Source: an uncultured Coxiellaceae bacterium (GTDB taxonomy: Bacteria; Pseudomonadota; Gammaproteobacteria; DSM-16500). From it: a DNA stretch of 64,000 nucleotides. The DNA lies in NCBI GenBank assembly GCA_964647825.1, contig CAZYJL010000007.1, positions 43,268 through 107,267 of the forward strand, given 5' to 3'. Both the position numbers and the translations under genes were made by a program. The notes under the pieces are model-generated. The model saw nothing but the letters and a program-made list of their open reading frames with translations. It was not told where the DNA came from and searched no databases. This document shows, piece by piece, positions 56,940 through 59,807 of the stretch; positions within the stretch are counted from its first letter, which is position 1; each line of letters begins with the position of its first letter.

Positions 56940-59807
56940 TTAAAATCCAAAAGCTGGCGGCGGCTGCATCGTTACTTCTGCTTTTTCTTCATCTGACTCA
57001 AACAGCGTTGAAGTATTTTTTAAACTTTCCGGATTTAAGTGACTACCTGCAGAAGCACCAAACAAAGTCGGTGAACCTGATGCAGGCGCAAAAGGACTTT
57101 TGGATTGACTCATTCCTTTATTGACTGACACAATCTGCAATGCAGTATTAAGGACATTTCCAGCCTGCCCAAAGAACATGCCATCACCCTGTGCAGGGCC
57201 ACCGGCGCCATTGTTAACAACCATGGCAGGCGTTGGCATACTGGAAAAATTCTTAGAAACTTCTGCCAGCAACCGAAGTTTTTCCAGTTCCAGATAACTT
57301 GGATTTTCCAGTTTCTTCAATTCCACTTCTGCAAGCGCCATTTTACCTGCAGCCTCCAGCATGGCAGATTTTTTCTGGGTTTCTGCTTCATATAACTTTA
57401 TATCAGCAGCCTGTTTTCTGATTTGAGCCTCGGTATTAGCCTGAATTTTTCTAGTAGCAGCTTCAGATTCAGCTTTTTGGGTTGCTGTATAAGCTTGCGC
57501 ATCTGCTTCCGCTTTTTTTTGCGCCAATAGGGTTTGCGTTTGCATTTGATTGGTAATTTCAGTTTTCTGTGCGTCTACCCTGATTTTTGCCATCTCAACT
57601 GCATTGCGCGCCTGCTGTAAATCCAGTTCAGCCTCTGCCTTTCTTGTATTTGCTGTCGCATCTGCCAGTGATTTTCCAACTTCCTTGTCCCGAAAATCGA
57701 TATCACTAATAGCAACATCTATAATTTCAATACCCCAATCCCTAGTCTCATTAGTCAACTTACGTTGCACATTTGTACATAACTGACCGCGATAGGCATC
57801 GCCTTCAATCCGACTGTGATCACCAAAAATAGGGACCGAACTTTTAGATTCTTCATTCTCACTGTCTTTTGTGCTAGATTTCGAAGCCAATAGATGATGA
57901 TGATCTGGTGAGATCATGGATAAATCAGCTTTGGACATTTGATACCGCAAAATAGCATCAGCACAACTTTCCAGTGAGACCTGAAGATTCTCCTGCCCAA
58001 TGCCGGTCACCATTTGATGTGGATTGGAAATCCGGTAAGTCACCTGCCCTGTCACCAGCATAGGCATCCTGTCACTGGTCGTTACATTGATTTCATGTAA
58101 TTGCTTGATAATGTTACGAGTAGAAATCGCTTCTTCTGCAACTTTCAAAGAAGGATTATCAAATGAATATAATCCACGTTCGAGTATCGTCAGTCTGCCA
58201 TCCTGCCAAACAGCGCGCGCTTCACCTTCTCTAACAATAATTCGCGTCAAATTATGAAACTGAATTAAGGAAGAGTTGGCATCGAAGGAACGAATATATT
58301 GGAATTGTGGATCATTGTAATAATGAACACCTGGCATTAATTCCATGGCTTTGCCTTGATATAAAGCATACCCAATAGTGCCAGGCTTAATTCTGATAAT
58401 GGTGTAGGATCCATGTGTAATCAATTCATCAGAGACATCCTTGATTGCTTCGAATTTAAAAACTGGAGATTTGATTCTGTAATAGCCTTCAGGCAGGATT
58501 GCAGGGCTGCTACCATCCCACACCAGCCCCAATTTACCTTTATTTACCCGAATCAAATGAATCGTATCATGCTGGATATAGGATTCAGTTTCAGAATAAG
58601 ACGCTTTATATGAAAAACTCTGTGAATTTTTTACATAGATGCCTGGGTTCAAAATAACAGGTTGGTTGTCATCATACGCCAGACCAATTCTGCCCTGTGG
58701 GATTCTGACAATGGAAATGCTGCCATGCTGAAAATACTCTGTGACCGGCCCGTCCTGAACATTGGGATAGATTTTTTTGAATGATTTGGTATCAAGCAAC
58801 CCAGAAAAGTTGAAGCCCGGCCTGTCAATCACATGCAACCCCGACAACAAAATGACAGGATTACCATTCATGAAACCAAGGCCAAGTTCATTGTTTCTGA
58901 CACGCACGATATTCAGCGATAAAAAGGTATGGCAAGGTTGATCCACTTCCTTGATATCAGCACTGTTTAGTCGAAATACTGCCGTGTTGTACGCATGTCT
59001 TCCTGGCATTAAAACGACTGGACTATTCCCGTCAACGGCAAAACCAATACGGGTCTGCGGAATACGTGCAATCGTGATATTGTCTTCATTGATATACTCA
59101 TCAGATGTATGGGCAATTCTGGCACGCCACGTATGTCTTGGCCCAGTTAAATAATACATGGAGGGACCCATAGAAATTTCCTGCCTGCCTGCATTATCTG
59201 AAAAATGAATCTCGCCATTATTGAGCGTCCGCAGACTACGATAAAATCCAAAAAATGGCGCACCGATGATTGCAGAAAATGCAACCTTCGCATATCGCGC
59301 GGCGCCCTCTGATCGATGACGGCCATTGACGACATCCAGCATTGCTGCGTCTGATTCAGCATTTTGTTGCCTGATCCAAGCCCGACCATGATCTGCACCT
59401 GATGCCCATTGTAAAAAACTTTCTTTTGCGATCGGCGCCCATATCCAGTCACGCTGATCATCAGGGCCCATTTGATCGAAAGAAACCAAATCAGATTGCA
59501 TGTAAGTCACATCTTCAGATTTCACTTCTGAATCATTTATTTCAAATTGGATGGGCATTGCTGCAGCCATCAAATCTTCTTCTAATGGCACAGAAGGCAC
59601 TTGCTCAATGATTTCACTTCGATTGATTATTTTATTGAATGCATCTGTTTGTTCTTCAACTGACTCACCTTTCTGGCTTAAAATTTTAAGATCATCTTGT
59701 TTTTTTTCTTCAACTGATATAGTAGCAAGTTCTTCCCCAAGCTCCTGCTTTCTGCTTTCTCTTGAAACCATCATAAAGCTTACTCCTTGAGTTGATAATC
59801 TAAACAA
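56940..59807 (-). CDS. Giant SPFH/band-7 (flotillin-like) protein with 5-6 tandem ~52-aa N-terminal beta repeats and a long C-terminal coiled coil; architecture parallels major vault protein
   Basis: Repeats carry [IV]xRIPxGRIGxAxDxNxPVxLxPG. SPFH core (QLHEINVTTSDRMPMLVTGQVTYRI ... WGIEIIDVAISDIDF). EA-rich coiled coil (KAEAELDLQQARNAVEMAKIRVDAQK...). Acidic C-terminal end. Confidence 0.7.
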   Translation of the reverse strand: MFRLSTQGVSFMMVSRESRKQELGEELATISVEEKKQDDLKILSQKGESVEEQTDAFNKIINRSEIIEQVPSVPLEEDLMAAAMPIQFEINDSEVKSEDVTYMQSDLVSFDQMGPDDQRDWIWAPIAKESFLQWASGADHGRAWIRQQNAESDAAMLDVVNGRHRSEGAARYAKVAFSAIIGAPFFGFYRSLRTLNNGEIHFSDNAGRQEISMGPSMYYLTGPRHTWRARIAHTSDEYINEDNITIARIPQTRIGFAVDGNSPVVLMPGRHAYNTAVFRLNSADIKEVDQPCHTFLSLNIVRVRNNELGLGFMNGNPVILLSGLHVIDRPGFNFSGLLDTKSFKKIYPNVQDGPVTEYFQHGSISIVRIPQGRIGLAYDDNQPVILNPGIYVKNSQSFSYKASYSETESYIQHDTIHLIRVNKGKLGLVWDGSSPAILPEGYYRIKSPVFKFEAIKDVSDELITHGSYTIIRIKPGTIGYALYQGKAMELMPGVHYYNDPQFQYIRSFDANSSLIQFHNLTRIIVREGEARAVWQDGRLTILERGLYSFDNPSLKVAEEAISTRNIIKQLHEINVTTSDRMPMLVTGQVTYRISNPHQMVTGIGQENLQVSLESCADAILRYQMSKADLSMISPDHHHLLASKSSTKDSENEESKSSVPIFGDHSRIEGDAYRGQLCTNVQRKLTNETRDWGIEIIDVAISDIDFRDKEVGKSLADATANTRKAEAELDLQQARNAVEMAKIRVDAQKTEITNQMQTQTLLAQKKAEADAQAYTATQKAESEAATRKIQANTEAQIRKQAADIKLYEAETQKKSAMLEAAGKMALAEVELKKLENPSYLELEKLRLLAEVSKNFSSMPTPAMVVNNGAGGPAQGDGMFFGQAGNVLNTALQIVSVNKGMSQSKSPFAPASGSPTLFGASAGSHLNPESLKNTSTLFESDEEKAEVTMQPPPAFGF

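Follow-up and report, generated by a model that had tools for sequence, protein, structure and literature searches.

The gene considered here lies in a stretch of 64,000 nucleotides (the window) from an uncultured Coxiellaceae bacterium (GenBank assembly GCA_964647825.1, contig CAZYJL010000007.1, positions 43,268 to 107,267), and it encodes an SPFH-domain protein in which the beta-rich N-terminal module of the SPFH domain has been amplified in tandem. The open reading frame (ORF), at 56940..59807 on the reverse strand, runs for 955 residues from a TTG at 59807 (ORF list). An earlier note on this DNA had reported the ORF with a repeat array and an SPFH core, and these observations are real, since the frame, the repeats and the core were all recovered. 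Taken as a whole, we consider it probable that the protein follows the building plan of the vault with amplified SPFH1 modules, that it belongs to a family of its own, and that it is likely a ring- or cage-forming scaffold. The repeats, their derivation from the SPFH N-terminus, the fold, the architecture and the distribution of the family are documented below.

SPFH proteins form homo- or hetero-oligomeric rings or cages, and SPFH1 is the name given in the recent cryo-EM literature to their beta-rich N-terminal sub-module (PMC12624060). The vault itself is now viewed as an SPFH complex (PMC12624060; bioRxiv 10.1101/2025.06.06.658390), and in one description the major vault protein (MVP) is an SPFH protein that contains several SPFH1 modules (PMC11348225).

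Tandem repeats derived from the SPFH N-terminus

Five units of about 52 residues begin at about residues 243, 297, 363, 415 and 467 (residue numbers throughout follow the 955-residue numbering), and the motif [IV]xRIPxGxIGxAxD.NxPVxLxPG is located at residues 246, 300, 366, 418 and 470. In leave-one-out hidden Markov models (HMMs), built from four units and applied to the fifth, the units scored 22.9-52.0 bits against at most 6.5 bits for the best of 1000 shuffled proteins; the repeats are therefore well beyond chance. A BLASTP self-comparison of the protein detected no repeat, and Pfam has no model for it. The earlier count of five to six tandem units of about 52 residues with this motif can be made precise: there are five such units, and the "sixth" is the SPFH domain's own N-terminal beta-segment. 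A degenerate unit ahead of the five was recognised with a unit profile made from 344 repeat units of the 150 best family members. The units are as follows:

59103..59228 (-): R0, degenerate repeat, residues 194-235 (GEIHFSDNAGRQEISMGPSMYYLTGPRHTW...); unit profile hhalign probability 75.8%, E=2.3e-5 (residues ~194-233)
58920..59081 (-): R1, residues 243-296; motif, leave-one-out 34.2 bits, six-strand beta unit, predicted local distance difference test (pLDDT) about 90
58722..58919 (-): R2, residues 297-362, with an insertion loop of ~14 residues; leave-one-out 22.9 bits, unit alignment, model
58566..58721 (-): R3, residues 363-414; leave-one-out 52.0 bits, model
58410..58565 (-): R4, residues 415-466; leave-one-out 24.3 bits, model
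58248..58409 (-): R5, residues 467-520; leave-one-out 28.2 bits, model

An AlphaFold model of the repeats only (residues 236-522, multiple sequence alignment (MSA) of 21 sequences) reached a pLDDT of 92.8 and a predicted TM-score (pTM) of 0.74, and is all-beta with about six strands per unit.

The origin of the units was found within the protein itself. Indeed, the unit profile matched the family's SPFH domain with an hhalign probability of 95.4% (E=1.9e-8, 40 columns, residues 523-563), whereas the reversed control gave E=0.41. Moreover, the family-wide unit HMM scores the SPFH N-terminus of the studied protein (residues 519-568) as unit 6, with 21 bits, and in relatives from bacteria, protists and a giant virus it likewise picks out the SPFH N-terminus as the final unit (14-39 bits). 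Because the unit profile matches the protein's own SPFH N-terminal segment, the repeats are, as judged from sequence, amplified copies of an SPFH1-type N-terminal beta module, five of them well kept and one degenerate. The earlier note had offered amplification of the SPFH N-terminal beta element as an alternative to a vault-like reading, and this alternative is directly demonstrated by the sequence match just described. Since the repeats derive from an SPFH1-type module, the vault-plan reading and the amplified-SPFH reading become one design.

In a tree of the units, R1 groups with R1, and so on for the other positions, across the bacterial-type subfamily to which the protein belongs; the units cluster by position, and the array of five therefore dates back to the common ancestor of this subfamily. 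The unit tree also revealed a lineage-specific expansion of units in Phalansterium, and one member (P0005) has one additional unit.

SPFH core, helix and tail

The remainder of the protein downstream of the repeats consists of the following parts:

58068..58247 (-): residues 521-580, beta-rich N-terminal SPFH part (SPFH1-type), the template of the repeats; unit profile E=1.9e-8, 21 bits, start of Band_7
57690..58067 (-): residues 581-706, alpha/beta SPFH core (SPFH2-type); Pfam Band_7, secondary structure and pLDDT, Foldseek match to the stomatin SPFH domain with TMt 0.83-0.91
57243..57689 (-): residues 707-855, long helix (coiled coil 1, CC1, residues 708-819) and two shorter helices (CC2-like); AlphaFold, weak coiled-coil matches to prohibitin-2 and erlin-2
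56943..57242 (-): residues 856-955, C-terminal tail with a conserved TPAxV...MFFGQ and a terminal acidic cluster ESDEEKAE; conserved in alignments A1 and A4, low pLDDT

Pfam Band_7 (PF01145) is the sole Pfam domain of the protein (residues 524-733, E=2.1e-15, 57.7 bits against a cutoff of 23.6) and was also matched in 45 of the 58 relatives, so that the description of the core as a bona fide SPFH/band-7 domain stands. The isolated domain gave a Foldseek TMt of up to 0.91, with the SPFH domain of stomatin, and by sequence too the core is nearest to stomatin: the family profile searched against PDB sequences matched stomatin (1.8e-5), PH1511, prohibitin-2 and QmcA.

The helix region (residues 707-856) is rich in Ala, Glu, Lys and Gln (A 19%, D+E 16%, K+R 16%). 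A coiled coil of about 150 residues had been proposed here, in agreement with the AlphaFold model, which has a continuous helix at residues 708-819 and further helices up to residue 855. The proposed acidic tail needs correction; D+E make up 7% of the whole tail, which is not acidic, and only its last ~20 residues, with the ESDEEKAE cluster, fit the description. In the full-length AlphaFold model (MSA of 5 sequences), pLDDT is ~85-90 over residues 240-630, and residues 1-92, 163-236, 635-669 and 850-955 are disordered.

Within the alpha/beta core, in the region of residues 625-669 (~57801-57935), a strongly conserved LSMISPDHHH (alignment A1) stands ahead of a variable, disordered and acidic insertion of ~35 residues (residues 635-669). 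The SPFH domain of MVP also has an unusual loop, the NAD+-binding "keyhole loop" (PMC12280208).

Comparison with the major vault protein

When the full-length model was compared with the PDB by Foldseek, MVPs ranked first, with E-values from 4.9e-13 (9r86) to ~9e-11 (4v60: 8.7e-11) over 739-848 columns; behind them came prohibitin, stomatin, HflK/C, erlin, flotillin and QmcA (E 1e-10 to 1e-7, 190-450 columns). The alignment over such a length supports the earlier proposal of an MVP-like order, with a beta-repeat array, an SPFH domain and a long helix, and of an MVP-like size. The two proteins share an array of beta-modules of ~50-55 residues followed by the SPFH alpha/beta part, a helix of ~150 residues and a tail, a size of about 900 residues and the lack of a transmembrane (TM) helix. 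They differ in the number of repeats, eight or nine in MVP against five plus a degenerate one here, in that the repeats here are still recognisably like the protein's own SPFH N-terminus and the SPFH core is stomatin-like by sequence, and in an additional acidic N-terminal region of ~165 residues with a subfamily-specific domain.

A true MVP orthologue or homologue, derived from a protist host and building genuine closed vault particles, which are membrane-free dimers of 39-fold half-shells, would account for these likenesses. Besides the top-ranking full-length Foldseek matches and the agreement in size, in domain order and in the missing TM helix, it would fit the full-length hhalign comparison with a vertebrate MVP profile (probability 83%, E=9e-6) and the repeat-only Foldseek search, in which MVP had the highest TM-score (0.30) and probability (0.60) listed; prokaryotic homologues of MVP, including five-repeat Asgard ones, are also known (PMC12962969, PMC3762200). 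We nevertheless regard this explanation as quite unlikely. No match to the Vault (PF01505, PF17794-6) or MVP_shoulder (PF11978) models was found in the studied protein at E<=1 or in 58 family members at E<=0.01, whereas these domains are present in every one of 120 genuine MVPs collected for comparison. In the repeat-only Foldseek search nothing reached E<=1e-3; the MVP match itself had E=0.12, and beta-propeller and alphavirus-glycoprotein noise was returned. The repeat-only model fits MVP no better than it fits SPFH1 of prohibitin or QmcA. The unit profile against MVP repeats gave E=0.012, with reversed controls at 0.014-0.11, and the family profile that found stomatin, PH1511, prohibitin-2 and QmcA among PDB sequences did not match MVP. 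Region by region, hhalign with a profile made only of vertebrate MVPs did not exceed the reversed controls; this comparison has low power, because the link between the SPFH core and the MVP shoulder went undetected as well, and it cannot exclude remote homology. The RIPP-type likeness to the MVP N-terminus pointed out in the earlier note was at control level too: the top local hhalign match (residues 365-381 against MVP 6-22; IVRIPQG... / IIRIPPY...) had E=0.15, equal to the reversed controls. Membership in the MVP/Vault family, suggested in the same note, was thus not upheld, given the absence of Vault and shoulder Pfam matches, a repeat-only model without a significant MVP-repeat match and a core nearest to stomatin. 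The sequence comparisons point to a protein that uses the design principle of the vault but stands outside the MVP sequence family.

Prokaryotic MVP homologues have been reported in Myxococcales, Cytophagales, Oscillatoriales, Herpetosiphon and Asgard archaea (PMC3762200; bioRxiv 10.1101/872010; PMC12962969). They were found by BLAST or by reciprocal structural best match to MVP, and some are >50% identical to eukaryotic MVP (PMC12962969, PMC3762200, bioRxiv 10.1101/872010). Compared by their descriptions only, they likewise combine repeats, a shoulder/SPFH domain and a cap helix, and the Asgard ones also have five repeats; in contrast, the present family is invisible to the Vault models, and its members come from protists, a giant virus and bacteria of the Legionellales type.

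Family and distribution

When 1.84 billion cluster representatives were searched exhaustively with a profile, only 894 proteins were returned at E<=1e-3, of which 134 reached E<=1e-30. This is a distinct family and not SPFH proteins in general. Nearly all of the best 150 members have 1-8 units N-terminal to the SPFH core. Named members come from Paulinella chromatophora (two sequences), Phalansterium solitarium, Soliformovum irregulare, Gymnodinium smaydae, an MMETSP transcript (61%-GC contigs), the giant virus Harvfovirus, whose protein is annotated "prohibitin domain-containing protein", and metagenome-assembled genomes (MAGs) of Gammaproteobacteria. A connection to eukaryotes, raised in the earlier note, is borne out by this wider membership of protists and a giant virus. 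Among 185,579 GTDB species genomes, close relatives were found in only three, two Gammaproteobacteria MAGs and one Legionellales UBA5158, and P0005 is carried on a clearly bacterial contig.

In a rough neighbour-joining (NJ) tree without support values, the studied protein falls in a discrete bacterial-type subfamily; the two Paulinella sequences adjoin it, and the members from amoebozoans, a dinoflagellate and the virus group together elsewhere. The Paulinella sequences (P0015 and P0016, from the EukProt transcriptome of Paulinella chromatophora) have the N-terminal domain specific to this subfamily and cluster beside the clade of Gammaproteobacteria MAGs; they are either bacterial contaminants or culture symbionts, or else the result of inter-domain transfer.

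No paper was found that reports SPFH proteins with amplified SPFH1 modules besides MVP, or a Legionella SPFH-repeat protein; the family is undescribed so far, and its members are currently annotated only as "SPFH/prohibitin domain-containing". Scans of viral contigs with P0023, P0029 and alignment A1 found no relatives, and neither the plasmid tblastn search nor the PADLOC defence models gave a match.

A distant member with six repeats (P0023) was found on a contig of 26.8% GC (L007 621-7360, Logan SRR12245243). It lies ~2.5 kb from a eukaryote-type WGR-PARP_reg-PARP gene, with FNIP-repeat and DEAD-helicase genes near, and the dense co-oriented packing looks like that of a giant virus or amoeba. 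Vertebrate vaults house PARP4, and the adjacency of P0023 to a PARP gene may be coincidental.

N-terminal region and relation to membrane-anchored SPFH proteins

Ahead of the repeats lie three segments:

59532..59807 (-): residues 1-92, acidic, predicted disordered; pLDDT <50
59313..59531 (-): residues 93-165, conserved N-terminal domain (SFDQ..W..W..NA.TD..L..VN); conserved columns in alignment A1, pLDDT 63-82
59244..59300 (-): residues 170-188, moderately hydrophobic segment containing Gly and Pro, ARYAKVAFSAIIGAPFFGF; Kyte-Doolittle 19-residue mean (KD19) 1.08, low pLDDT

The acidic N-terminus described earlier is evident in the composition of residues 1-165 (D+E 19% against K+R 10%), of which residues 1-92 are predicted to be disordered. 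An HMM of residues 93-165 gave strong matches in 22 members of the bacterial-type subfamily and few elsewhere; by sequence, this domain appears specific to that subfamily. Segments resembling residues 170-188 are also present in homologs, and in the studied protein the segment is set apart from the SPFH core by six repeat units. No 19-residue Kyte-Doolittle window of the protein reached TM hydropathy; the maximum, 1.08, is that of residues 170-188 and lies under the usual TM range, which speaks against a true TM anchor. The segment may serve as a peripheral membrane anchor. The highly charged N-terminus contains no stretch resembling a signal peptide.

The canonical SPFH cage proteins (stomatin, prohibitin 1/2, HflK/C, QmcA, erlin and flotillin) have in common with the studied protein Band_7 and the order SPFH1-SPFH2-CC1-CC2-C-terminus; they are its closest sequence relatives in the PDB, and the SPFH core reaches a TMt of up to 0.91 with stomatin. 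Each of them, however, has one SPFH1 module and, at the N-terminus, a TM helix, a hairpin or a site of acylation, whereas the studied protein has six to seven tandem SPFH1-type modules, about 240 residues ahead of the first good repeat and no clear TM helix, and it does not pass the family models for HflC and Flot.

A conventional membrane-anchored bacterial SPFH microdomain scaffold, flotillin-, HflK/C- or QmcA-like, in which the repeats would be a mere spacer, is in our view unlikely. Its Band_7 core would be expected nearest to stomatin, prohibitin and QmcA, as found, and the hydrophobic Gly/Pro segment N-terminal to the repeats is in the usual place of an SPFH anchor; there is also a weak match to HflC. 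This match, however, the sole one to an NCBIfam model (TIGR01932), scored only 31.4 bits, under the cutoff of 134.4, and Flot (PF15975) was absent from the studied protein, with weak matches (E=0.002) in two of the 58 relatives. Neither an NfeD nor an FtsH partner gene is near the SPFH gene, the hydrophobic segment is under TM strength and follows ~170 charged residues of cytoplasmic type, and the family is essentially missing from free-living bacteria among the GTDB species genomes. The earlier statement that this is not a standard HflK/C, stomatin or flotillin is supported by the HflC score, the absence of Flot and the lack of a clear TM helix. Three observations had also been named there as arguing against a vault protein; the first two, the lack of a Vault match and repeats that iterate the SPFH N-terminal element, were made, and the third, orthologs that are ordinary flotillins in free-living bacteria, was not.

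Proposed assembly and its significance

What we infer from this architecture concerns the formation of an oligomeric cage, its location and its biological role. An SPFH1-type module has been amplified and placed ahead of a canonical SPFH1-SPFH2 core, a wall helix of ~110-150 residues and a C-terminal tail. By analogy with every solved SPFH protein, lateral contacts of the SPFH domains and helices most likely drive self-assembly into a ring or dome of large size, whose wall would be made taller by the stacked beta-modules, as in the vault barrel, to give a "half-vault"-like cage. Because a signal peptide and a clear TM helix are lacking, such a cage would be cytoplasmic, either free or peripherally held by residues 170-188; it could also reside in the host cell if the protein were translocated. 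The conserved N-terminal domain and the weakly hydrophobic segment would lie at the base, where they might attach the cage to a membrane, bind cargo or pair two cages base to base. On the present analysis, the most likely function is that of a tall scaffold, an SPFH ring or cage.

Several points weigh against this proposal. In the model of the monomer, the pLDDT of the long helix is no more than moderate (~60), and oligomerisation is predicted from membership in the SPFH family. In addition, residues 170-188, if they act as a membrane anchor, could mean a membrane-bound dome instead of a free cage, and among the bacterial loci compared there is no conserved gene neighbourhood that gives a functional clue.

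The origin of the vault is an open question, and MVP has been seen as standing apart within the SPFH superfamily, an oddity of which few prokaryotic relatives are known. The proteins studied here would provide a second family, with about 900 cluster representatives from bacteria, eukaryotes and a giant virus, that stacks extra SPFH1 modules under an SPFH ring, and repeats that match their own SPFH N-terminus in sequence illustrate how such an architecture arises. Two hypotheses are thereby made testable, that of a "vault by SPFH1 amplification" and that of a wall height tuned by repeat number (1-8 copies). For the biology of Legionellales, the protein is a candidate eukaryote-like scaffold or effector, and for nanotechnology the family may offer bacterial, probably self-assembling cage proteins of variable height. 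A more far-reaching scenario, which we think improbable, places the family on the way from one-module SPFH proteins to the vault, as a surviving intermediate or a sister lineage; protists, giant viruses and Legionella-like bacteria would then assemble nanocompartments that are half-vaults or resemble vaults, and the bacterium might inject its version into amoebae, where cages would be built or hijacked on the vacuole of the pathogen.

Gene structure, genomic setting and a possible effector role

The gene and the terminator-like element at its end are:

56940..59807 (-): longest ORF, with the likely coding sequence at 56940-59774; ORF list, Shine-Dalgarno, P0001
56888..56913 (-): terminator-like hairpin, 11-bp stem then a T-run, 27 nt past the stop codon; consensus scan

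A perfect AAGGAG Shine-Dalgarno sequence at 59788-59783 stands 8 nt before an ATG at 59774 (residue M12), and the identical protein in the database (P0001) is 944 residues long. Because of this ribosome-binding sequence and of the length of the database copy, the real product is probably the 944-residue protein encoded at 56940-59774. Terminator-like hairpins flank the gene on either side (consensus scan), and it looks monocistronic. Its neighbours are a POT transporter, a Trp dioxygenase, UmuC and an ORF without known family. Both the GC content of the gene and that at third codon positions (GC3) equal those of the neighbours, which speaks against a recent horizontal acquisition.

The window contains an LbtU-family siderophore porin at 46343-47923 (-) (NF033652, 276.7 bits, cutoff 90); in Legionella, LbtU is the receptor for legiobactin. 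Five large ORFs (420-712 residues), set in a Gram-negative chromosome that is ordinary otherwise, have no Pfam or NCBIfam match: 3219-5357 (-), 16519-17997 (-), 39157-40746 (+), 42047-43471 (-) and 54996-56258 (-), the last of which, with 420 residues, is the immediate downstream neighbour of the SPFH gene. Large family-less ORFs are typical of lineage-specific, effector-like genes in Legionellales. Together with housekeeping genes, the LbtU-family porin and several large family-less ORFs support, at the level of sequence, the view of the window as part of a Legionella-like chromosome.

Such a setting raises the question of whether the protein acts in a host. It could be an effector of the Dot/Icm (type IVB) system that imitates a scaffold which its protist host makes from this family, possibly vacuolin- or flotillin-like, and that organises or disrupts microdomains on the membrane of the host vacuole. 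This proposal concerns location and role and is compatible with the architecture described above; we hold it possible but doubtful. The distribution, with protists, Harvfovirus and only three Legionellales-type genomes among 185,579 species, is of the kind typical for gene sharing associated with amoebae, the organism is Legionella-like, and the gene looks monocistronic between terminator-like hairpins and encodes no signal peptide. The acidic cluster, 8-19 residues from the C-terminus, is also present in several close homologs and resembles the E-block of Dot/Icm signals. This acidic tail is, however, not universal in the subfamily, and the NCBIfam effector models did not match the studied protein; the distribution and the acidic C-terminal cluster are compatible with an effector but weak evidence for one. 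Moreover, the GC and GC3 values do not point to a recent acquisition, the bacterial clade is not nested within eukaryotes in the rough tree, the Paulinella sequences are possibly bacterial contaminants, and a self-assembling protein of ~100 kDa would be an awkward substrate for a type IV secretion system. The vacuolins of Dictyostelium are flotillin-like, with a central rather than N-terminal prohibitin (PHB) domain and a C-terminal coiled coil (bioRxiv 10.1101/582049); the Phalansterium and Soliformovum members, in which repeats are followed by the SPFH domain and a coiled coil within 600-900 residues, resemble them as a lead by description only. A ring or cage scaffold made of amplified SPFH1 modules remains our preferred reading of the protein, wherever it acts.

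Other observations concern the neighbouring genes. The SPFH gene is bracketed by an intact POT gene just upstream (59923-61413) and a POT pseudogene fragment downstream. The latter belongs to an 83-residue ORF at 56206-56457 (-), a remnant of a POT/PTR2 transporter, in which about 110 nt (~56290-56400) are ~80% identical to the 5' part of the intact gene; this bracketing may be the scar of a duplication or rearrangement. A DabA gene (PF10070, E=2e-221) at 48291-50651 (-) and a NuoL/MnhA-like DabB gene at 50590-51936 (-), whose ORFs overlap by about 60 nt, form a probable inorganic-carbon transporter. Finally, a short Fic-domain ORF of 133 residues at 62340-62741 (+) covers only part of the Fic/adenylyltransferase models and may represent a Fic protein that has been truncated or what is left of a toxin.

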